A stretch of 32,000 nt of DNA from Thermodesulfobacterium commune DSM 2178. Lineage in GTDB: Bacteria; Desulfobacterota; Thermodesulfobacteria; Thermodesulfobacteriales; Thermodesulfobacteriaceae. A program made the position numbers and the translations under genes. The notes under the pieces are model-generated. The model was not told the origin of the DNA. It ran no database searches and was given only the letters and a program-made list of their open reading frames with translations. Of this stretch, positions 4,451-29,507 are shown one piece after another. The stretch's first letter is position 1, and the number at the start of each line of letters is the position of its first letter. The stretch is taken from the NCBI RefSeq assembly GCF_000734015.1, contig NZ_CP008796.1, forward strand, positions 690,001-722,000. Direction: 5' to 3'.

Positions 4451-5659
4451 CTAATTTACAATTACTTTCAGAAACTTCTTTTTCCCTATCCTAAAAACAT
4501 ACTCTCCTGTTGAAAGATTTAGCTCCTCTTGAGTTAAAACTTCTTTATTCAAATCTATAGCCCTCTGAGCTATAAGACGCCTGGCCTCAGAGTTGCTCTT
4601 TACTAACCCTTGATCTTTTAAAAGTCCTGGTACCCATACCTTGCCTGCTGGTATTACCACCGTAGGCACCTCGGTAGGTAGCTCTTTTTTACTAAACACT
4701 CTTTCAAACTCTTCTTCTGCCTTAAGGGCTGCCTCCTCTGAATGAAACTGGGTAACTATATACTTGGCCAACCTCTTTTTTACTTCCTTGGGATGTAACT
4801 CTCCTTTCTCTACAGAAGCCTTCATGTTATCAATCTCTTCTTCTGAAAATTCGGTAAGGAGCAGATAGTATTTCCACATAAGTTCATCTGGTATAGACAT
4901 AAGTTTTCCAAACATTTCATAAGGTGACTCCATAATTCCTACGTAGTTACCAAGGCTTTTACTCATCTTTTGGACACCGTCAAGCCCCTCTAATATAGGT
5001 AATGTAAGGATAACTTGAGGTTCTTGGCCATATTCTCTTTGGATGTCTCTTCCTATCAATAGGTTAAAAAGTTGGTCGGTACCCCCTAACTCTACATCTG
5101 CCTCAAGGGCTACTGAATCATAGGCCTGAAAAAGAGGATAAATAAGCTCATGGATACTTATAGGAAGTCCACTTTCGAACCTTTTTTTAAAATCCTCTCT
5201 TTCTAATATCCTTGCAACGGTATATTTAGCACATAACCTAACCATGTCTTCAGCAGTCATCTTAGACAACCATTGACTGTTAAACACGATCTTCGTTTTT
5301 TTTGGGTCTAAAATCTTAAAAACCTGTTCTTTGTAAGTTTTAGCGTTCTCTAAAACCTGTTCTTTAGTAAGAGGAGGACGAGTTTCAGACCTACCTGTTG
5401 GGTCCCCTATCATAGCTGTAAAATCACCTATTAAAAAATAGACTTCATGCCCAAGGTCCTGGAATTGTTTCATCTTTCTTAAAAGCACCGTATGCCCAAG
5501 GTGAAGGTCAGGAGCTGTAGGGTCAAATCCTGCTTTTATCCTAAGAGGACGTCCCTCTTTATAAGACTTCTCAAGTTTTTTTATTAACTCCTCTTCTTCT
5601 ATCAAATCAACCGTTCCCCTCTTAATAAGCTCTAATGCCCTTTTTATTTCTTCATTCAT
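4451..5659 (-). CDS. tyrS: Tyrosyl-tRNA synthetase
   Basis: Class I motifs HLGH and [18 protein letters not shown] is typical of TyrRS. A C-terminal S4-like domain is present, and AGGAGGG is the SD. Confidence 0.95.
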
Positions 5660-14311: not shown

Positions 14312-16158
14312 TGAAAAGGGCTCAAAAATTAGTTTTAGTTATCTTTTCTTTTTTAATTCTTTTAACTTCTGTGGTAGCGATTGAAAAACTTTATCCAAAA
14401 TACGAGCTTCTTACTTACAGCGAGTTTAAAACCTTAGTAAGGTTGGGATTGGTTGACAATCTTACCTTAAAAAAACATGAAATTACAGGAATTTTTCGTG
14501 AACAAGCTGCAGAGAAACTTTATGAACTAAGAAACAAACCGGTAAAAATTTCTAACTCATTTAAAGTTTATCGAGCAGAAGACCCTGACCTTTTAAAACT
14601 TCTTGAAGAAAAGGGAATCAGATATCAGGTTAAACCTGAGAGCAACCATTGGATTGGGTTATTTTCCTGGTTAATACCGTTGATAATACTTATTGGCTTT
14701 TGGCTTTTCCTTTTTAAAAAGTTTACGTCGTCAGATGGAGGTATCATAAGTTTTGGTAAAAGTAAAGCTAAAATCTATGTAGAAGACGAAATACAAGTAA
14801 CCTTTAAGGACGTGGCTGGGGTTGATGAAGCTGTAGAAGAACTAAAAGAAATCATAGAGTTTTTGAAACATCCTGAAAGGTTTACCAAGCTTGGAGCCAA
14901 AATTCCGAAAGGAGTATTACTGGTAGGTCCTCCTGGTACAGGTAAAACCCTTCTTGCAAGAGCTGTAGCAGGTGAAGCAGGAGTTCCCTTTATTTCTATT
15001 TCAGGGTCTTCTTTTGTAGAAATGTTTGTGGGAGTAGGAGCTGCCAGGGTGAGAGACCTTTTTTCTCAAGCAGAAAAAATGGCTCCTTGTATCATTTTTA
15101 TAGACGAAATAGATGCAGTTGGAAGGGTTAGAGGGGTCTCTGCTACAGGAGGTACTGAAGAAAGAGAGCACACCCTGACCCAGCTTCTTACCGAAATGGA
15201 TGGGTTTGACCCAAAAAAAGGAGTCATCATCATCGCAGCTACCAACCGTCCTGAAATCTTAGACCCTGCCCTTCTTCGTCCAGGAAGGTTTGACAGGGTG
15301 GTTGTGGTTGATAGACCTGATTTAAAGGGGAGAGAAGAAATCCTTAGGTTGCATTGCCAAAACATACCTCTTGGTCAAGATGTAGACTTAAAGGTTATTG
15401 CTGCAAGAACACCTGGTATGGTGGGAGCAGATCTTGCTAATGTTGTAAACGAAGCAGCTTTGCTTGCTGCAAGAAAGGGTAAAAATTATGTTGAGATGGA
15501 AGACTTTGAGGAAGCTATCGATAGAGTAATAGCAGGCCTTGCTAAGAAAAACCGTTATATCTCCCACGAAGAAAAAACCAGAATAGCCTATCATGAAGCA
15601 GGACATGCGGTGGTAGCCTCGGTGTTAACACCCCAGGAAAAGGTGCACAGGATTTCTATCATCCCAAGAGGTATTTCTGCCTTAGGCTACACCTTGCAAC
15701 TTCCTACCGAAGAAAGATATTTGATGACCAAAACTGAACTTTTAGCCAAAATCTCTGTACTTTTAGGTGGTAGGGCTGCCGAAGAATTAGTTTTTAAAGA
15801 GGTATCTACAGGAGCTCAAAACGATTTAGAAAGAGCTACCGAAATAGCAAGAGCTATGGTCATGGATTACGGAATGAGTGACATCTTAGGACCGCAAACC
15901 TTTAGAAAAAGAGAACATCTGTTTTTGGATGTTCCTTTTAAAGAGAGAGAAATGGTTTCTGAACAAATAGCCTCTCTTATAGACCAAGAAATAAGTCAAA
16001 CCCTAAAAACTTGTTATGAAACCTCTACCAGAATCCTTTCCGAAAGAATAGAAATTTTAGAAACTATTGTTAAGATTTTAATGGAAAAAGAAGTTTTAGA
16101 AGGGGAAGAACTGGAAAAATTGCTTTATCAAAATCCAAAAGGAGGAAACAGTCGATGA
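14311..16158 (+). CDS. ftsH: ATP-dependent zinc metalloprotease FtsH
   Basis: Two N-terminal TM segments, Walker A GPPGTGKT, Walker B IIFIDEID, an SRH region and zinc site HEAGHA. TGATG overlap with pfk. Confidence 0.95.
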
Positions 16159-17816
16159 AGGTCATATTTAAAGTCTTAATATTAGTCTTTTTTATTTTTT
16201 CAACCCATCAACTCAGTTTTAGCAGTCTACCCCCTGAGGTTTATGAACAGGTCAAAAAAGACTTCTCTCCTCTTTCTGGATTACTTATCGGTATAGAAGA
16301 TAGAGAACTTATAATCGATAAAGGTTTGGTGCAAGGAGTTAAAAATAAAGATATTTTTACGGTTTATAAAAGAGGAAAAAAGATCGTTCACCCTGAAACT
16401 CAAAAAACCCTTGGATATCTAAAAGAACCGGTAGCTAAAATAGAAGTTGTCAGAACAGACGAAAACTTTGCCATGGCAAAAGTTATCTATCAAAAAGAGC
16501 CTTTAACCGTTCCTATGCCGATTACCAGGTATGCAGACCTAAAAATCCTTGTTATCGTTGAACATACCAACCCAAACGAAAACCTCTTTTTAACCTTAAA
16601 AAACAACCTTCCAGACTGTACTATTATTTTCGACCCTAACCTTAGATTTAGCCAAATAACCCCTGAGTATTTATTAGCTGAAAAGTTTGACCTTCTCTTT
16701 GTAGAAGAAGAAAACACCATAAAGGTATATAACTCAAAGTTAGACCTTATAAGATACTATGGAGGACTTTCTTATTCAAAGGTATCTACCTCAACTTACC
16801 TTAGACCTTCTCAAACCAAAGTAGAACCTAAACCCTTAGGTGAAACACAACCCTCCCTTATAGGTAAGACTAAGGGGGAGGTAGTACAAGCTGAGTTTAC
16901 AGATATAGACAACGACGGAATTCAAGAAATGATTTATTTTAATTCCCAAGGGCTTTTTATCGTCAAACTAAAAGGAGGGCTTTTAGCCTATTACAAACCT
17001 TCTTCAGGAAAGATAGTAAATTTTTCAGTAGGACCAAATGGTTGGATCGCTTTAAACGTGTATGACGATAGAGTTGGGATGAAAAGTGAAATTTTACATT
17101 ACACCAATCAAGGACTTAACCCAGTGATAACCAACATCAACCTGATTTTAAACTTTGTAGATTATACTGCAAGAGGAATTAAAGATACCCTTTTAGGACA
17201 AACCTTTGACCCAGAAACCTTTTTCGGAAAAGAAGTATTTATTCTAAAAAGAGAAAACAACCAGCTTATCTATGCCCACAAACTTAACCTTTTTGAAGGA
17301 TATCAAAACATAGGAACTAGCTTTGTAGATTTTGATCAGGACGGACAACCTGAGATTTTAACCTACTTAGATGACGGAAGATTAGGGGTGTATAAAAACA
17401 ATCAACTTCAATGGACTTCTCCTTATGCTATAGCCCAACACTTTTATGAAGTAAGACTTATAAAGGGGAAAAAGGGACAAGAAGTAGTTAAAAAAGTGAT
17501 ATTACCCTTTGTTTCACCTCTGGTTCAGTATGCTAACGGCAAAACCTTTGTATTTTTTGCTTCAACAGAGTTTCCTTTAAACACCGTTAAAAAAGAATTA
17601 AAATATCTTCCTTTAGATAGCGCTACTTCTCAGATTTTTGTCTTAGGGTTTGAAGGAAACTATTATTATAGAAACCTTACTTCTGCTCAGAGAGGATTTA
17701 TTACCGGAATTGGTTACGATAATAGCCTTCTTTATTTTACAGTAGTAAGAGGAAAATATCCTGTGGATACAGAGACAGAGCTTTATAGCCTTATTTTAGG
17801 AAGGTCTTCTTTTTAG
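16155..17816 (+). CDS. Secreted protein of unknown function with FG-GAP/VCBS-like Asp-rich loops
   Basis: Signal peptide [23 protein letters not shown]. Loops FTDIDNDGIQEM and FVDFDQDGQPEI. ATGA overlap with the ftsH stop. Confidence 0.7.
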   Translation: MKVIFKVLILVFFIFSTHQLSFSSLPPEVYEQVKKDFSPLSGLLIGIEDRELIIDKGLVQGVKNKDIFTVYKRGKKIVHPETQKTLGYLKEPVAKIEVVRTDENFAMAKVIYQKEPLTVPMPITRYADLKILVIVEHTNPNENLFLTLKNNLPDCTIIFDPNLRFSQITPEYLLAEKFDLLFVEEENTIKVYNSKLDLIRYYGGLSYSKVSTSTYLRPSQTKVEPKPLGETQPSLIGKTKGEVVQAEFTDIDNDGIQEMIYFNSQGLFIVKLKGGLLAYYKPSSGKIVNFSVGPNGWIALNVYDDRVGMKSEILHYTNQGLNPVITNINLILNFVDYTARGIKDTLLGQTFDPETFFGKEVFILKRENNQLIYAHKLNLFEGYQNIGTSFVDFDQDGQPEILTYLDDGRLGVYKNNQLQWTSPYAIAQHFYEVRLIKGKKGQEVVKKVILPFVSPLVQYANGKTFVFFASTEFPLNTVKKELKYLPLDSATSQIFVLGFEGNYYYRNLTSAQRGFITGIGYDNSLLYFTVVRGKYPVDTETELYSLILGRSSF

Positions 17817-18517: not shown

Positions 18518-21628
<3,111 letters not shown>

Positions 21629-22085: not shown

Positions 22086-22454
22086 TTAAGACCTTTTATG
22101 GCAGTCATTACACTTAACTGGCGCTTGTTTACCTTCTTCACCGTTAACCTTCTTATGGCATTCAATACAGGTCTTATGGTAGGCATCCATAGCTTTTAAA
22201 GCTTTATCTTTAGCCTGAGCTATATCATGACATTCTACACATTTTTTTACTTCTTTAGTAGGATCGGCTTCTGCATGATGACATACTTTACAATCGATTT
22301 TATATACATCTACATGGTTTGCATGATTAAACTTCACAGCTGGAAATTTAGCTCCTTCCAGTTTTAATTGTAATTCCGTTGGAAGTGCAAAAACTAAAGT
22401 AACACAGAACAAAATTCCTCCTATGATTAACCCTCCCCAAACTTTCTTTTTCAT
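22086..22454 (-). CDS. Tetrahaem cytochrome c3 family protein (class III), with an N-terminal signal or anchor
   Basis: Four CxxCH motifs (CKVCH, CVECH, CIECH, CNDCH) and the FNHANH...CKVCHH pattern in 122 aa. The SD is GGGGGGG, 7 nt upstream of the ATG. Confidence 0.85.
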   Translation of the reverse strand: MKKKVWGGLIIGGILFCVTLVFALPTELQLKLEGAKFPAVKFNHANHVDVYKIDCKVCHHAEADPTKEVKKCVECHDIAQAKDKALKAMDAYHKTCIECHKKVNGEEGKQAPVKCNDCHKRS

Positions 22455-22478: not shown

Positions 22479-23120
22479 TTAGTGCCCGGTATGTTCTTCA
22501 TGTTCTTCTTCATATCCGGTAAACATAGCTATGATGTGAGCTAAAGGTGTATGTCCTAAAGTACTTAAATAAATATGAACAAAAAGGAAAAATCCGTAAA
22601 ACACCCAAAGGCCATTGTGAATTAAAGAAACAATCTGAATACCTCCCATCAAACTTTCTAACCAAGCAAACTGAACAGGATCCCAAAGCACAAGACCTGT
22701 CAAAATTTGTAAAGGTATACAAAAGATCATGATGATAAAATAAAAAACCTGTTGTAGAGGATTAAATTTGTTATCAGGGGTTGGATGATGAGGGTTTTTC
22801 TCTCCTACCATGATACCATAGGCATAATACTTTGCTTGAGCAAAAGCTTTTTTAATAAAATCTACAGGTCTCCAAAAAGGAGGGATATAAATCTTAAAAA
22901 TTTTTCCGGTAAACAGATAGTAACATAACCAGATAAAATAATTAGCAAGCAAAATAAACCCTAACCAGCTATGTATCTTAACCGCACTTTCAAAAGACAT
23001 AAGATTTATCTTATCTACCAATCTGATCTGTAATCCGGTAATTATCAATACTATAAAACTGATAGCATTGATCCAGTGCCATATTCTTACAGGTAAAGGA
23101 TGTAAATATACCTTCTTCAT
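22479..23120 (-). CDS. Membrane cytochrome b subunit (PhsC/FdnI/HydC-type, four conserved His, presumably di-haem)
   Basis: LPVRIWHWINAISFIVLIITGLQIR start. Four hydrophobic helices carry His in WHW, KIHSW, LIHNG and FVHIY. The ATG overlaps the upstream stop (TAATG). Confidence 0.85.
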   Translation of the reverse strand: MKKVYLHPLPVRIWHWINAISFIVLIITGLQIRLVDKINLMSFESAVKIHSWLGFILLANYFIWLCYYLFTGKIFKIYIPPFWRPVDFIKKAFAQAKYYAYGIMVGEKNPHHPTPDNKFNPLQQVFYFIIMIFCIPLQILTGLVLWDPVQFAWLESLMGGIQIVSLIHNGLWVFYGFFLFVHIYLSTLGHTPLAHIIAMFTGYEEEHEEHTGH

Positions 23121-24793
23121 TATTTCCCCTCCCTTCTTTTTCTTCTAATAGGTGTGGTTATAATTCTTAAAGATAGATGCCCTAAACCAAAACCTATACC
23201 GCAAACCACAGCCAAAACAAACAATATATCTAAAACACTAATCCTTGACAGACCTAAAACATAAAAATCTCTAACATTTGGTATGGCATATACCGAATTT
23301 AAAATCTTTCTATCTACTAAGGTTTTTAAGGTTTTATCTCCTTCTTTACTGATTTCTAAAACTCCGGCAAACTTAGCCTCAGAACTATGACAAACAGTAC
23401 AATCTTTTATGGCTTCTTTCTTAGAAAGAATTTTATGAGCATCATTAGAATTTACTAAGTCTAATCTTCCTTTTAATTCAACTTTCACCTTCTGTTTAAC
23501 CGTATTCAAAAACTGCCAGAACTCTTTTTCCTGGACCAAACCATCTTTATTAAGATCTATCTTATTTTTTACCTCTTCAACCGGCCAGTTTAAAGCTTTA
23601 CTTAGATCTTCTACCGTTATGCCTGTTTTTTTAGCTTTATCTACCAAAGACAGCATCACTGCCTTTTCACCTTTTGCATGACACACACTACAAGAAGCAC
23701 TCTTAAAATGGACATCTACAAAGGATTCTAAGGTAAAAGGTGGATTATAGAGCCATTTACTATGAGCCTTCTTGGAGTCCTTATGGCAGGACAAACAAGA
23801 GTCGTTTAACTTTGCCATACTAACAGGTAAAACGTCATGGGCTTTATGACAGTTAGAACAATTAGGAGCATTAGGCTTGGATTCAGAAAGGGCTTTAAAA
23901 TGAATACTATCTTTGTAAGCCTTGGCCTCTTCTCCATGACAACTTGCACAGAGATTGAACTTTAACTCATTATTAGGTAAAATACGCGCCACTTTATGAT
24001 AATCATGACATCTTATACAGTCAGGAGCCTTCTCTTTCCCTTGATAAAAAGCCTTGGCATGGATACTTTTGTTAAATTGATCTACCTCTTTAGTATGACA
24101 TTGCTTACATATTTCTATAGCTTGTTTTCTATACTCTTTTAGTGATGCTATCTTTTTAATAGGATGCTCTGTTTTAGAATAACCTTTATGACAATCAGTA
24201 CACTTAAGGTCTTTATGTACAGAACTTAAAAGATGAGACCCATCTACCTTTACTGAAAGAACTTCACCATTTTCAAGCTTTTTAGTTATAGATTTACTAT
24301 GGCAAGTCAAACAATATTGATTTTCAGGTAAATTTTTACCTATTTTGGCTGGTTTAACCCCATGATATCCATGACATTCTATACAAGAAGCAGTCTTAGA
24401 AATGGTGTAGTGTACCTGATTTCTTCTTAATGTAGCATCGGTATGACATTTCTGACATATCTGTTTAGAAAGATTAGCCGCATACTCTCTTTTATTCTTA
24501 AATGTATATGAAGGATGTTTAGTTTTTGAAAAATCACTGTGACATACGATACACTGAAAGTTGCTATGAACAGATTGTTTGATTTCATTTAAGTTTACCT
24601 TAAGATTTAACTTTTCACCACTTTTTAACGTTTTGCTTAACTCAATTTTATGACAAGACATGCAGTATTCATTAAAACTTGCTTTTTGCTTCCATTCCTT
24701 AAAACTTAGGTCTTGAGAAGGTAAACTTCCGATAACCCTTTTAGAAGTAGCAGCAAGCAAACCGGTTGTCAACAAAAGCAGACTTAACAACAA
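23120..24793 (-). CDS. 13-haem c-type cytochrome with a C-terminal transmembrane anchor. The authentic start is probably the ATG at 24824, reached through an A9 tract.
   Basis: 13 CxxCH motifs counted by hand. A hydrophobic helix VLDILFVLAVVCGIGFGLG is followed by RRKRREGK. The track ORF starts at TTG 24793, with no SD and no charged n-region. An SD plus ATG lies at 24824 in the +1 frame (see findings). Confidence 0.85.
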   Translation of the reverse strand: MLLSLLLLTTGLLAATSKRVIGSLPSQDLSFKEWKQKASFNEYCMSCHKIELSKTLKSGEKLNLKVNLNEIKQSVHSNFQCIVCHSDFSKTKHPSYTFKNKREYAANLSKQICQKCHTDATLRRNQVHYTISKTASCIECHGYHGVKPAKIGKNLPENQYCLTCHSKSITKKLENGEVLSVKVDGSHLLSSVHKDLKCTDCHKGYSKTEHPIKKIASLKEYRKQAIEICKQCHTKEVDQFNKSIHAKAFYQGKEKAPDCIRCHDYHKVARILPNNELKFNLCASCHGEEAKAYKDSIHFKALSESKPNAPNCSNCHKAHDVLPVSMAKLNDSCLSCHKDSKKAHSKWLYNPPFTLESFVDVHFKSASCSVCHAKGEKAVMLSLVDKAKKTGITVEDLSKALNWPVEEVKNKIDLNKDGLVQEKEFWQFLNTVKQKVKVELKGRLDLVNSNDAHKILSKKEAIKDCTVCHSSEAKFAGVLEISKEGDKTLKTLVDRKILNSVYAIPNVRDFYVLGLSRISVLDILFVLAVVCGIGFGLGHLSLRIITTPIRRKRREGK

Positions 24794-24823
24794 GAAAGAA
24801 AAATATAGCGTCTTTTTTTTTCA

Positions 24824-25996
24824 TTATTTAACCCCCACAGGAATATTTGTATGATATCCGTGGCAATCAATACACATAAATCTTTTATCTCTAGCTACTA
24901 TAGCATGACCTGGATGTTTAGAAATGCTTTCATAAGTATGACATTTAGTACAACGAGAAGCCATTTCTTTAGTGTAATCTTTTATAGATCTAATGTTAAT
25001 AGGTTTAGGATGAAAATCTGTGTTATAAATATCATAATGGCAAGCAAAACAACCTATTTTACCGTGAGGAGTTTTGGCAAATTTTTCTGAATTAACATAA
25101 AGATACATCTTATCACCGTTACCTAAAACCTTAGGCAACCTTTCTACTTTATGGCACTTTATACACTCTTGGGTCTGTTTTCTTACTAATTTGATAGGTT
25201 TAACATAGTGAGAATTATGACATTCAGAACAAAGGGTCTTTCCCTCTTTTACTATGTTTTGATGAAAAGAAGAAAGTCCGGACGCAGGATGACAGGTTAA
25301 ACAGTTTTGGTTTACCCCTTTGGAATAGCTATAACGACTTTCTATTTTGATCGGTTTAGGATGGGTAGATTTATCAATATCCTGGTGACAGAATAAACAG
25401 TGAACCTTATTTCCGTGCGCAGAATCATAAAACTTCTTTGAATCTACATAAAGAGCCATCTTTTCTCCATTAGGTAAAACCTTATGAAGCCTCTCTAACT
25501 TATGACACTTTAAACAATCTTTAGCAATCCTATCAAATTCCTCTTTTATAGGTTTAATGTAATGTGAACCGTGACACTCTGCACAAGAGAGTTTATTTTC
25601 TTTTACTATGTTTTTATGGATAGGAGAAAGACTTTCGATAGCATGGCAATTTACACAATTAGCAGAAACTATCTTTTTATATTCCCTTACACTGGCAATT
25701 TTCATCGGTCTTGGATGTTCCTTTACGTTAAGGTCGGCATGACAAGAAAGACAATCCATACTTCCATGAACAGAGGCCTGAAACTTCTCAGGGTCTACAT
25801 AAAGAGCCATCTTTTCTCCATTAGGTAAAACCTTATGAAGCCTCTCTAATTTATGACACTTTAAACAGGCATCGTTTGAACCACTGCTACTTGCTATGGA
25901 CGATTTATTAAAGGTTAGAGGAAGAAAAAAACTGATCCCCAACAGAACTCCAGATAAACACAACCCAAGAAAAAAATATCTAAAAATTTTTCCCAT
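24824..25996 (-). CDS. 12-haem c-type cytochrome built from three tandem 117-aa tetrahaem modules
   Basis: 12 CxxCH motifs. The first Cys of each module is at residues 46, 163 and 280 in track numbering. The start is set at ATG 25996 (MGKIFRYFF...) because GGGGG (26007-26003) lies 6 nt upstream. The track's TTG at 26002 abuts the SD. Confidence 0.85.
   Translation of the reverse strand: MGKIFRYFFLGLCLSGVLLGISFFLPLTFNKSSIASSSGSNDACLKCHKLERLHKVLPNGEKMALYVDPEKFQASVHGSMDCLSCHADLNVKEHPRPMKIASVREYKKIVSANCVNCHAIESLSPIHKNIVKENKLSCAECHGSHYIKPIKEEFDRIAKDCLKCHKLERLHKVLPNGEKMALYVDSKKFYDSAHGNKVHCLFCHQDIDKSTHPKPIKIESRYSYSKGVNQNCLTCHPASGLSSFHQNIVKEGKTLCSECHNSHYVKPIKLVRKQTQECIKCHKVERLPKVLGNGDKMYLYVNSEKFAKTPHGKIGCFACHYDIYNTDFHPKPINIRSIKDYTKEMASRCTKCHTYESISKHPGHAIVARDKRFMCIDCHGYHTNIPVGVK
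25443..25516. repeat. Intragenic direct repeat, copy A (74 bp, 73/74 identical to copy B)
   Basis: Encodes CLKCHKLERLHKVLPNGEKMALYVD at the start of module 2. It is offset exactly 351 bp from copy B. Confidence 0.9.
25794..25867. repeat. Intragenic direct repeat, copy B
   Basis: The same 74 bp with one C/T difference (25499 vs 25850). It encodes the identical 25 aa at the start of module 1. Confidence 0.9.
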
Positions 25997-26053
25997 TATC
26001 AACCCCCATAAAGAAAGATTTTAAAATAACCCTATTTTGCCTATTAGATATAG

Positions 26054-26082: not shown

Positions 26083-26156
26083 GCCTAACAAGTTCTAAAA
26101 AAGTAGGTTTTTAAGTTCTAATTTCTATTAAACAACAAATTTTTATAAATTTTTTT

Positions 26157-27431
26157 TTATTTTTTTCTTTTATCTATCACTCGTACAGCTTTTCCTGGAA
26201 CCCTTTGAATGGTGCCTTCAGGAACGATTTGAATCTTACTTCTAAAACCTAAAAAATCATAAAGTTCTAAGTTTAGCCTCTCCATTTCTTGATCGGTTAA
26301 CCCCCCATCGGTTTTTTCTACAATGATGGTCATCTCATCTTTGCCTTTTACATTTTCTATTACCAATTGATAATACGGAGCAAGTCCTTTGTACTTCAAA
26401 AGTATAGCCTCTATCTGAGAAGGATAAAAATTTACCCCCTTTACCTTCAACATATCGTCTGTTCTGCCTTTAATTCTATCTATTCTAACGTGAGTTCTTC
26501 CACACTCGCAGGGTTCGTAACTTATTATCTTAGATATGTCTCTTGTTCTATACCTGATAAGAGGCAAGCCTTCTCTGGTAAGAGTAGTAACCACTATTTC
26601 TCCTTCTTCTCCTAAAGGCAATACCTCACCTGTTTCAGGATGTACGATTTCTATGATATAATGATCTTCCCAAACATGAATGCCTTTTCTTGCTTCACAA
26701 TCTATCCCTAAACCTACTCCCCCGGTTTCTGTCATCCCTATGATATCAAAGGTTTTAACCCCCATCATCTCTTCTATCCTTTTTCTGTATTCATCTGACC
26801 AGGTTTCAGCACCTAAAATAGCTACCCGAAGATTAGTTTTTCTAAAATCAAACCCATTTTCTTGAGCTACTTCGATAAGTCTTGCTGGATAAGAAGCTAT
26901 AGCCCCTATGGCGGTAACCCCCAAATCTTTTATAAGTTTAAGTTGCATAAGAGTTCTTCCAGCACCTGCTGGAACGATAAAACATCCTAAGGTTTCTGCT
27001 CCATAATGAAAACCAAAACCTCCGTTAAATAACCCAAAGGAAGGCATAATCTGTAACCTGTCTTTTGAGGTAAGCCCAGCACAAGCCAAGCATCGAGCCA
27101 TTATCTCACCCCACTGAGCCACATCATTTTTAGTCATAAGGTTTAATACTGGGATTCCTGTAGTCCCTGAACTCATATGCATTCTTACACAATCTGAAGG
27201 ATCTACAGCTATGTGTCCAAAAGGATAACCATCCCTTAAGTCATCTTTTGTCGTAAAAGGCAGGTATTTTAAATCATCTAAACTTTTTATATCTTCAGGA
27301 TGGATGTCTTTAATCTTCTCTTTTAACATAGATTTAGAATTTTTAAGAAATGCGATGGTTTTTCTTAATCTACCAAGCTGAATTTTTTCAATCTCTTCTC
27401 TTGGTAAAGTTTCCATCTTAGGATTAAACAT
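26157..27431 (-). CDS. Phenylacetate-CoA ligase family (PaaK/F390-synthetase-like) adenylate-forming enzyme
   Basis: N-terminus FNPKMETLPREEIEKIQLGRLRKT and AMP-binding motif MSSGTTGIPV. The length and C-terminal lid domain are typical of PaaK-like proteins. The substrate cannot be inferred. Confidence 0.85.
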   Translation of the reverse strand: MFNPKMETLPREEIEKIQLGRLRKTIAFLKNSKSMLKEKIKDIHPEDIKSLDDLKYLPFTTKDDLRDGYPFGHIAVDPSDCVRMHMSSGTTGIPVLNLMTKNDVAQWGEIMARCLACAGLTSKDRLQIMPSFGLFNGGFGFHYGAETLGCFIVPAGAGRTLMQLKLIKDLGVTAIGAIASYPARLIEVAQENGFDFRKTNLRVAILGAETWSDEYRKRIEEMMGVKTFDIIGMTETGGVGLGIDCEARKGIHVWEDHYIIEIVHPETGEVLPLGEEGEIVVTTLTREGLPLIRYRTRDISKIISYEPCECGRTHVRIDRIKGRTDDMLKVKGVNFYPSQIEAILLKYKGLAPYYQLVIENVKGKDEMTIIVEKTDGGLTDQEMERLNLELYDFLGFRSKIQIVPEGTIQRVPGKAVRVIDKRKK

Positions 27432-29232: not shown

Positions 29233-29507
29233 AAATCCTCCATGATTTGTTTAATTTGTTAGCAGAGAAAAGAAGTTATATGAAAATTAAACCGAGACCT
29301 TAAGGGAATTTTAAATAACCTCTTTTTACTGCTTTGTTAAACAATAACACTACAACAAAAAAAAACAAGAGACTAAACCATAATTTATTATTTTTATTAG
29401 TATCTAAATTAATTTAAAAATCTAACCCCTAAAATCAACCTTGACTATTTAAACAAATTTTTTTATTTAATATTTTTATAAGCAATTTAAACCAAGGGGG
29501 TTATAAT

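Follow-up and report, generated by a model that had tools for sequence, protein, structure and literature searches.

What does a bacterium gain or lose when an otherwise intact gene lies one reading frame away from its own initiation site? The question arises in the 32,000-nucleotide (nt) stretch of the Thermodesulfobacterium commune DSM 2178 genome analysed here (the window), in which the minus strand carries a cluster of cytochrome genes. Within that cluster, the open reading frame (ORF) for a membrane-anchored cytochrome with 13 CXXCH motifs (the 13-haem ORF) is preceded by a strong Shine-Dalgarno (SD) sequence, an ATG codon and a run of nine adenines (A9) that puts the ATG and the ORF in different frames. 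An initial annotation of this DNA had offered four explanations for the run: a sequencing or assembly error, slipped-strand on/off variation, transcriptional slippage that restores the frame in part of the mRNAs, and a real inactivating frameshift partly rescued by initiation at a TTG codon. Our findings favour, with a probability of about 0.6, the idea that a mutable poly(A) tract has really grown by one base to A9, and that its length switches the cytochrome on and off or dims it, the window being in the off or dim state.

The length of a poly(A) tract decides whether a strong start site is in frame with the cytochrome ORF

Across the junction (24790-24836 region) the minus strand reads CTGTGGGGGTTAAATAATGAAAAAAAAAGACGC, which in the A9 state can be written as CTGTGGGGGTTAAATAATG-A9-GACGCTATATTTTTC. 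The GGGGG SD with its 7-nt spacer, the ATG that overlaps the TAA stop codon of an upstream 12-haem cytochrome gene, and the A9 run all lie where the initial annotation had placed them (Table 1). The TAA occupies 24826-24824 and its final A doubles as the first base of the ATG; the same coupling, as had also been claimed, is used at the next junction, where the 13-haem and cytochrome b genes overlap as TAATGA. SD strengths were expressed as duplex energies against a generic anti-SD sequence. By this measure the SD of the ATG reaches -9.1 kcal/mol, the same value as that of the 12-haem gene, and the operon's real starts range from -9.1 to -12.1 kcal/mol. An ATG at the homologous site is also used by T. 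thermophilum, T. hveragerdense and T. auxiliatoris-like loci.

A single frame contains both the 12-haem gene and the 13-haem ORF, with the tandem stops TAA TGA between them, and the ATG stands in the +1 register relative to both. In the window, the frame of the ATG ends after 27 codons (24824-24741), just as the initial annotation had read it. Removal of one A, or addition of two, gives MKKK(K)TLYFSFLLLSLLLLTTGLLAATSK..., joined in frame to the 13-CXXCH ORF. As written, the earliest possible start of the latter is TTG 24793, which leaves it with 557 codons, one frame off the ATG. The earlier statement that this start is devoid of an SD also holds, as the in-frame TTG and CTG codons at 24793, 24790, 24781, 24775, 24772 and 24760 reach only +0.7 to -2.3 kcal/mol.

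Several routes by which the two frames might be reconciled were rejected. Read-through from the 12-haem gene into the 13-haem ORF is ruled out by the tandem stops, and productive -1 ribosomal frameshifting on A AAA AAA by the fact that the -1 frame stops within a few codons. A compensating indel downstream of the tract is likewise ruled out, since the 13-haem ORF carries none.

A run of this length is not improbable in DNA of 36% G+C, the window holding three runs of at least nine, and MKKK encoded with 67% AAA usage gives A8 nearly half the time; the poly(A) tract in itself calls for no special explanation. Its significance lies in the frame relationship, which is proven by conspecific A8 sequences that encode exactly the predicted protein of 567 amino acids (aa). 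The number of A's fixes the register of the cytochrome ORF relative to a strong initiation site, and both on and off lengths are found in near-identical genomes.

The A9 allele is almost certainly genuine

Homopolymers are the classic site of indel errors, 16 conspecific assemblies have A8 at this position, and A9 is known from assemblies and not from reads. These points speak for the first option of the initial annotation, according to which the true sequence is A8 and the additional base stems from an error in the sequencing or assembly of a draft genome. Nevertheless, we judge an error of this kind very unlikely. Contig JQLF01000005.1 (108,638 nt) of the T. commune assembly GCA_000746435.1 matches the window with 100% identity throughout the 7.7 kb that were fetched; it is the one NCBI contig on which the 557-aa TTG-initiated ORF is recorded, and its RefSeq product is a T. 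commune multihaem cytochrome of 551 aa. The Logan assembly of SRR4063117 (L101) has A9 as well, and its contig shows 100% identity with the window for 5.35 kb, so that a different assembler arrives at the same tract length.

Additional evidence comes from the T. commune type-strain genome CP008796, which was Sanger-finished at TIGR with about 9x coverage (PMC4319511). WP_144241963.1, an N-truncated T. commune protein of 546 aa, lies on a contig of 1,764,045 bp, the size of this genome, which would thus also be without the full-length ORF. Since an A8 genome would have been given the 567-aa protein, the 546-aa call is indirect evidence against an in-frame ATG in the Sanger genome.

We also surveyed 51 homopolymer runs (at least 6 A/T or at least 5 G/C) in the approximately 11.5 kb covered by the fetched loci. 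At all 50 runs other than the cytochrome tract, two 9-mers and several 8-mers included, the window has the length of the conspecific consensus; furthermore, the remaining genes of the window are intact housekeeping genes, with no further split genes across the 32 kb. Hence the marks that an artefact should leave, namely an irreproducible A9 and discrepancies at nearby homopolymers, were not found. The reproduction of A9, together with the truncated protein of the Sanger genome, makes an assembly error unlikely, and A9 is almost certainly a real frameshift allele.

Tract length differs among close relatives

The protein predicted from the A8 form (P0001, 567 aa) was retrieved as an exact match, with 100% identity over 100% of the query in 46 index blocks, and is present on at least 24 contigs from NCBI metagenome-assembled genomes (MAGs), JGI, ENA and Logan. 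All ten P0001 loci that were fetched carry A8, and their identity with the window is 98.8-99.7%, the tract being the only indel in most of them. Further alleles were found through look-ups of neighbouring genes, which presuppose no tract length. Two scans of metagenome contigs, one with the junction and a variable gap and the other with the downstream flank alone, gave no matches.

With each record counted once, the conspecific assemblies, whose identity is at least 98.8%, comprise 16 with A8, one with A9 in addition to the window, five with A10 and one with A11. The A8 form yields the in-frame signal peptide MKKKTLYFSF. The A11 allele, from the JGI metagenome 3300042276, is also in frame and begins with MKKKKTLYF (protein P0126). 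The initial annotation had predicted that A8 or A11 would restore a signal peptide joined to the 13-haem ORF, and both alleles thus exist in nature as P0001 and P0126. The A10 allele is out of frame; it occurs in SRR23823856 and in four more runs of the same accession range (Logan assemblies), and its annotated protein of 583 aa (P0133) was found on 11 contigs. A literature search for SRR23823856 gave no paper, and the Caldatribacterium co-culture study deals with T. auxiliatoris TA1 and not with the A10 runs.

The comparison of tract and N-terminus across orthologues and sister strains, which had been put forward as a check, was carried out, and relatives do have an in-frame upstream ATG (A8, A5, A11, A4GA5). 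The SD-TAATG junction is identical in three sister species, with the tract in frame each time: A5 in T. thermophilum DSM 1276, giving MKKT, A8 in T. hveragerdense DSM 12571, and the interrupted A4GA5 in a T. auxiliatoris-like locus, giving MKRK. With A5, A8 and A11 in frame and A9 and A10 out of frame, the length changes that survive between species are multiples of three, and out-of-frame lengths within the species occur as minority alleles. A8 is the ancestral and commonest state.

A neighbour-joining tree built from 2.2 kb surrounding the junction places A10 and A11 within a tight clade that includes A8, and A9 on a branch of its own. This placement of A9, A10 and A11 in the tree of single-nucleotide polymorphisms (SNPs) requires at least three recent changes. 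Past the tract, the A9, A10 and A11 alleles all have an undamaged coding sequence that matches P0001 exactly, and this lack of downstream decay implies that the off states are young or reversible. The second option of the initial annotation, slipped-strand on/off variation, is supported as far as differences between populations are concerned (A8, A9, A10 and A11 in near-identical genomes; A5 and A8 in sister species), but gained no support as switching within a clone or as a trait of adaptive value.

Variability compared with other homopolymers

Only one of the 50 other homopolymers in the survey varies, and it does so in a single assembly. When three events in about 19 lineages are set against one in 73 tract-lineage observations at other tracts of at least 8 nt, the Fisher test gives p of about 0.03, the lineages being not fully independent. 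The apparently greater variability of the cytochrome tract with respect to other tracts is suggestive only.

The one control run that varies is a plus-strand A9 (minus-strand T9) at 29357-29365, in the intergenic, divergent promoter region that separates the gene for the DEAD-box helicase from that for EF-G; its length is 10 in GCA_030445475.1 (L116) and 9 in the other nine assemblies. The 3' end of the PaaK-like ligase gene reads A7-T-A9 (26150-26166), with the TAA stop inside the runs, and this arrangement is constant in length in 16 of 16 conspecifics and in T. hveragerdense.

A mutable switch or a one-off inactivation

These observations allow us to propose a model for the tract, which supplies the Lys-Lys-Lys codons (ATG AAA AAA AAG) of the n-region in the signal peptide of the membrane-anchored 13-haem cytochrome. 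In this model, length changes would arise by slipped-strand mispairing during replication, giving rise to a mutational switch between on and off or, equally possibly, between high and low. In the A9 state, most ribosomes loading at the ATG would terminate after 27 codons and about 1.6 kb would be left untranslated; as a consequence, the expression of the downstream cytochrome b and c3 genes may fall too. Full-length protein would then be produced only by a minority of events, which may include slippage of RNA polymerase (plausible at 70 C) that makes mRNAs containing 8 or 11 A's, slippage of ribosomes on AAA codons, and weak SD-less initiation at TTG. Ribosomes can indeed slip on iterated AAA codons.

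Some of our data, however, weigh against this model. The tract lengths were taken from assemblies, and heterogeneity within a sample, which is the hallmark of phase variation, needs reads; likewise, the evidence from the Sanger genome is a truncated RefSeq protein and not the DNA of the tract. The A10 runs, which have neighbouring SRR accessions, probably stem from the same study and population and are therefore counted as one event. The Fisher test gives p = 0.23 when the cytochrome tract is compared with the single A9 control tract alone. Moreover, the tract is a chance product of MKKK and 67% AAA usage, for which selection for mutability is not required. Finally, a second, unrelated poly(A) frameshift is present in the same gene of the T. 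hveragerdense type strain, and this would be explained equally well by switching and by the plain loss, during culture, of a gene that the cells can dispense with.

The alternative to which the last point belongs is a plain loss of function, in which the gene would be dispensable in laboratory sulfate-reducing growth and the polymorphism seen elsewhere would be mutational noise with no adaptive meaning. In agreement with this view, two of the three isolate drafts of the species group that were compared have poly(A) frameshifts in the same gene at different sites, the broken copies being those of T. commune JQLF01 (the window) and T. hveragerdense DSM 12571, in which A6 has become A5 at about residue 419. 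Intact copies are found in T. thermophilum DSM 1276 and in a fourth isolate genome, T. sp. TA1 (T. auxiliatoris), where the protein has 568 aa. Most environmental assemblies are intact, with A8, and the tract itself is expected by chance from MKKK and AAA codon bias. What a one-off loss accounts for poorly is the out-of-frame A10 on 11 contigs, apparently metagenomic, and the in-frame A11 of the same tight clade; the presence of both in one clade suggests that alleles pass step by step through off states and then regain the frame. Nor would it predict that no off allele shows secondary decay, or that nearby tracts of equal or similar length are invariant. We therefore regard a one-off inactivation as possible but rather doubtful. 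It differs from switching mainly in whether the changes are frequent and useful. In the annotation of T. hveragerdense DSM 12571, the broken copy appears as two fragments of 139 aa (P0129) and 421 aa (P0131), with the break at about 4940-4950 of the fetched locus (L021).

With regard to switching, the tract is either a selected contingency locus or a mere hotspot resulting from MKKK and AAA codon bias. As expected of a contingency locus, length toggles the connection on which expression depends, as A5, A8 and A11 join the SD and ATG to the 13-haem ORF and A9 and A10 do not, and on and off lengths occur in very close genomes in the numbers given above. The locus has the structural features of a homopolymer contingency locus and, so far, not the kinetic one. 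That it is a true contingency locus, in other words a reversible and selected switch of the membrane-anchored 13-haem cytochrome, with dimming through RNA-polymerase slippage at 70 C and perhaps with effects on cytochromes b and c3 too, is a proposal that we make tentatively and would not yet favour. If true, it would mean phase-variable respiratory or extracellular electron-transfer capacity in a free-living thermophilic sulfate reducer, outside pathogens.

Recoding and initiation at TTG

A different reading takes A9 as the designed state, the protein being made by programmed recoding, either through RNA-polymerase slippage or through +1 ribosomal frameshifting. Nine A's are indeed a classic slippage length, efficient in a thermophile (PMC1088944), a slippery run of the required length of about 9 A/T is present in the coding strand (A9, 24813-24821), and the change required in the mRNA is small, minus one or plus two A's. 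However, programmed slippage as in T. thermophilus dnaX, insertion sequences and mxiE would also entail a conserved run and a conserved out-of-frame layout, and here conspecifics and sister species have A8, A5 or A11 in frame, or an interrupted tract. No second functional product is evident either, the zero-frame product being a 27-aa peptide. As for a +1 shift of the prfB type, in which one expects the shift site to be conserved, a slow or stop codon to occupy the A site and a stimulatory element to be present, the run is followed by GAC, neither a rare nor a stop codon, within a layout that is not conserved. Programmed recoding is thus unsupported, because the out-of-frame arrangement is not conserved, and we consider it extremely unlikely. 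The third option of the initial annotation, transcriptional slippage on A9, is plausible by analogy with known systems as an incidental partial rescue.

It could also be argued that the gene is functional as written, starting at TTG 24793 or at a nearby TTG, perhaps by re-initiation, with a shortened leader that still exports the protein. TTG 24793 is 31 nt past the upstream stop, MLLSLLLLTTGLLAATSK retains the hydrophobic core, and gene callers pick TTG starts in this region (557, 551 and 546 aa). Against this, no TTG is preceded by an SD, unlike the operon's real starts, the whole positively charged n-region is lost from the leader, and the RefSeq starts (551 and 546 aa) also cut part or most of the hydrophobic core. 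Besides, ribosomes coming from the strong ATG traverse the region in another frame, and the ATG is used by every relative. Functional initiation at TTG is in our opinion highly improbable. Thus, of the fourth option of the initial annotation, a real frameshift in T. commune is upheld as the most direct reading of the data, and the rescue by TTG looks poor, with neither an SD nor a charged n-region.

The cytochrome gene cluster and the rest of the window

The coordinates of the junction, of the cytochrome genes and of the tracts used for comparison are collected in Table 1. The cytochrome b and c3 genes both have strong SDs of their own. Sequence searches of NCBIfam and PDB placed neither of the two large cytochromes in any named family above cut-off.

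Table 1. Features of the minus strand at the cytochrome locus (window coordinates)
Feature	Position	Strand	Remarks
Shine-Dalgarno GGGGG	24832..24836	-	7-nt spacer to ATG; same in 23/23 conspecific assemblies
True ATG start of the 13-haem gene	24822..24824	-	TAATG overlap with upstream TAA; starts the 567-aa P0001 in more than 24 contigs
Poly(A) tract, A9 in the window	24813..24821	-	A8 form encodes Lys codons 2-4 (AAA AAA AAG) of the signal peptide
Dead-end 27-codon ORF from the ATG, A9 state	24741..24824	-	MKKKDAIFFFLVVKSAFVDNRFACCYF, then stop
13-CXXCH cytochrome frame, with C-terminal membrane helix	23120..24820	-	Open from the first AAA past TAA TGA; equals P0001 minus its N-terminus
12-CXXCH cytochrome gene	24824..25996	-	390 aa from ATG 25996 (390/392-aa ORF); upstream, same frame as the 13-haem ORF
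Cytochrome b gene (PF01292, PhsC/HydC/FdnI-like)	22479..23120	-	TAATGA overlap with the 13-haem gene; own strong SD
Tetrahaem cytochrome c3 gene	22086..22454	-	Last gene of the cluster
Control A9 at the stop codon / 3' end of the PaaK-like ligase gene	26150..26158	-	A9 in 16/16 conspecifics and T. hveragerdense; 1.3 kb from the cytochrome tract
A6 tract within the 13-haem gene	23565..23570	-	A6 in the window and T. thermophilum; A5 in T. hveragerdense DSM 12571, frameshift at about residue 419

In other Thermodesulfobacterium species, the 12-haem and 13-haem cytochromes are a single polypeptide of about 904 aa with 25 CXXCH motifs, and a Thermodesulfovibrio form has 666 aa and 17 CXXCH (P0004 and P0022 being among these proteins). 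The two ORFs of T. commune are parted only by TAA TGA and a signal-peptide segment of about 40 residues (window 24813-26002). The arrangement resembles the fission of one gene, or else a fusion in the other species, exactly at the junction that holds the poly(A) tract.

The assemblies differ at other points of the cluster as well. The minus-strand G5 at 26003-26007, which is the SD of the 12-haem gene, is polymorphic between G5 and G6, and the extra G (L001, L002, L011, L016 and L018) appears to track two SNP clades. Gene-splitting indels occur in GCA_036736905.1 (L005/L015/L112) at about window position 25793, and in GCA_003509565.1 (L001) at about 22763 and at 21270-21293. In these MAG assemblies, insertions of about 150-220 nt, or deletions, split the 12-haem, cytochrome b or trpS genes; the 12-haem gene has internal repeats of about 75-100 nt, which may cause mis-assembly. 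Elsewhere in the window, a 553-aa ORF (16155-17816, plus strand) downstream of ftsH gave no Pfam match at E <= 1e-5.

Implications

Taken together, these findings make it most likely that the T. commune genome represented in the window makes little or none of the 13-haem membrane cytochrome, and DSM 2178 is probably a natural knock-down of the cytochrome module. For the finished type-strain genome, the truncated RefSeq protein of the 1,764,045-bp contig points the same way. As a consequence, experiments on the physiology and electron transfer of DSM 2178 may not represent wild populations, which mostly carry the intact A8 allele. The RefSeq starts of the 551-aa and 546-aa products are not credible, and such proteins would be without a working signal peptide. 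In addition, the multiple tract lengths in near-identical genomes provide a testable case of homopolymer switching of costly respiratory hardware in non-pathogenic environmental bacteria, and the locus is a natural substrate for the measurement of RNA-polymerase slippage at 70 C.

Comparison with known systems

A search of the accessible papers returned no report linking phase variation, with or without homopolymers, to multihaem cytochromes. The locus would be a further example of homopolymer-frameshift switching as it is already known from other genes. In the contingency loci of Campylobacter, Neisseria, Haemophilus, Helicobacter and Mycobacterium tuberculosis, the length of an intragenic homopolymer likewise sets the frame, and on and off states are found among close relatives (PMC8355987, PMC5084427, PMC10334774). 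Unlike the cytochrome tract, classical loci of this kind are mostly poly(G/C), belong to surface or host-interaction genes, and have measured rates within a clone. The organisms that bear them are often devoid of mismatch repair.

As regards slippage at the level of transcription, the A9 of dnaX in Thermus thermophilus makes RNA polymerase yield mRNAs with 8, 10, 11 or more A's, with about 50% of altered product (Baranov et al., 2005, PMC1088944), and the rescue of disrupted ORFs by transcriptional slippage has also been described (PMC1088944). The cytochrome gene shares with dnaX and with insertion sequence (IS) elements a sense-strand run of nine A's, and with dnaX also its residence in a thermophile. 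In dnaX and the IS elements, however, the run and the frame layout are conserved and two products are useful, whereas the out-of-frame state is here a minority allele and slippage would be incidental at most. A further parallel is offered by insect endosymbionts, whose poly(A) frameshifts are reportedly rescued by polymerase infidelity, a finding said to be that of Tamas and co-workers from 2008. There, too, the frameshift lies within a long poly(A) tract, and the genes of these A+T-rich genomes still give some full-length product by slippage; but endosymbiont genomes are degenerating under drift, whereas T. commune lives freely and the in-frame allele prevails in its population.

The closest documented analogue of the cytochrome tract is the 5' poly(A) tract of inlA in Listeria monocytogenes, which frameshifts about 1000-fold faster than point mutation occurs (Orsi, Bowen & Wiedmann, 2010, PMC2831843); 5' poly(A) and poly(T) tracts have been argued in the same work to be a general means of gene inactivation in prokaryotes (PMC2831843). 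In both cases the poly(A) lies in the first few codons of a gene for a secreted protein, a one-base change replaces the protein by a peptide of between a few and some tens of residues, and frameshift alleles have arisen more than once. While inlA encodes a virulence factor, is inactivated by a deletion and has a measured frequency of frameshifting, the tract described here belongs to a respiratory multihaem cytochrome of a free-living thermophile and is known, from sequences, by its expansions to A9, A10 and A11.

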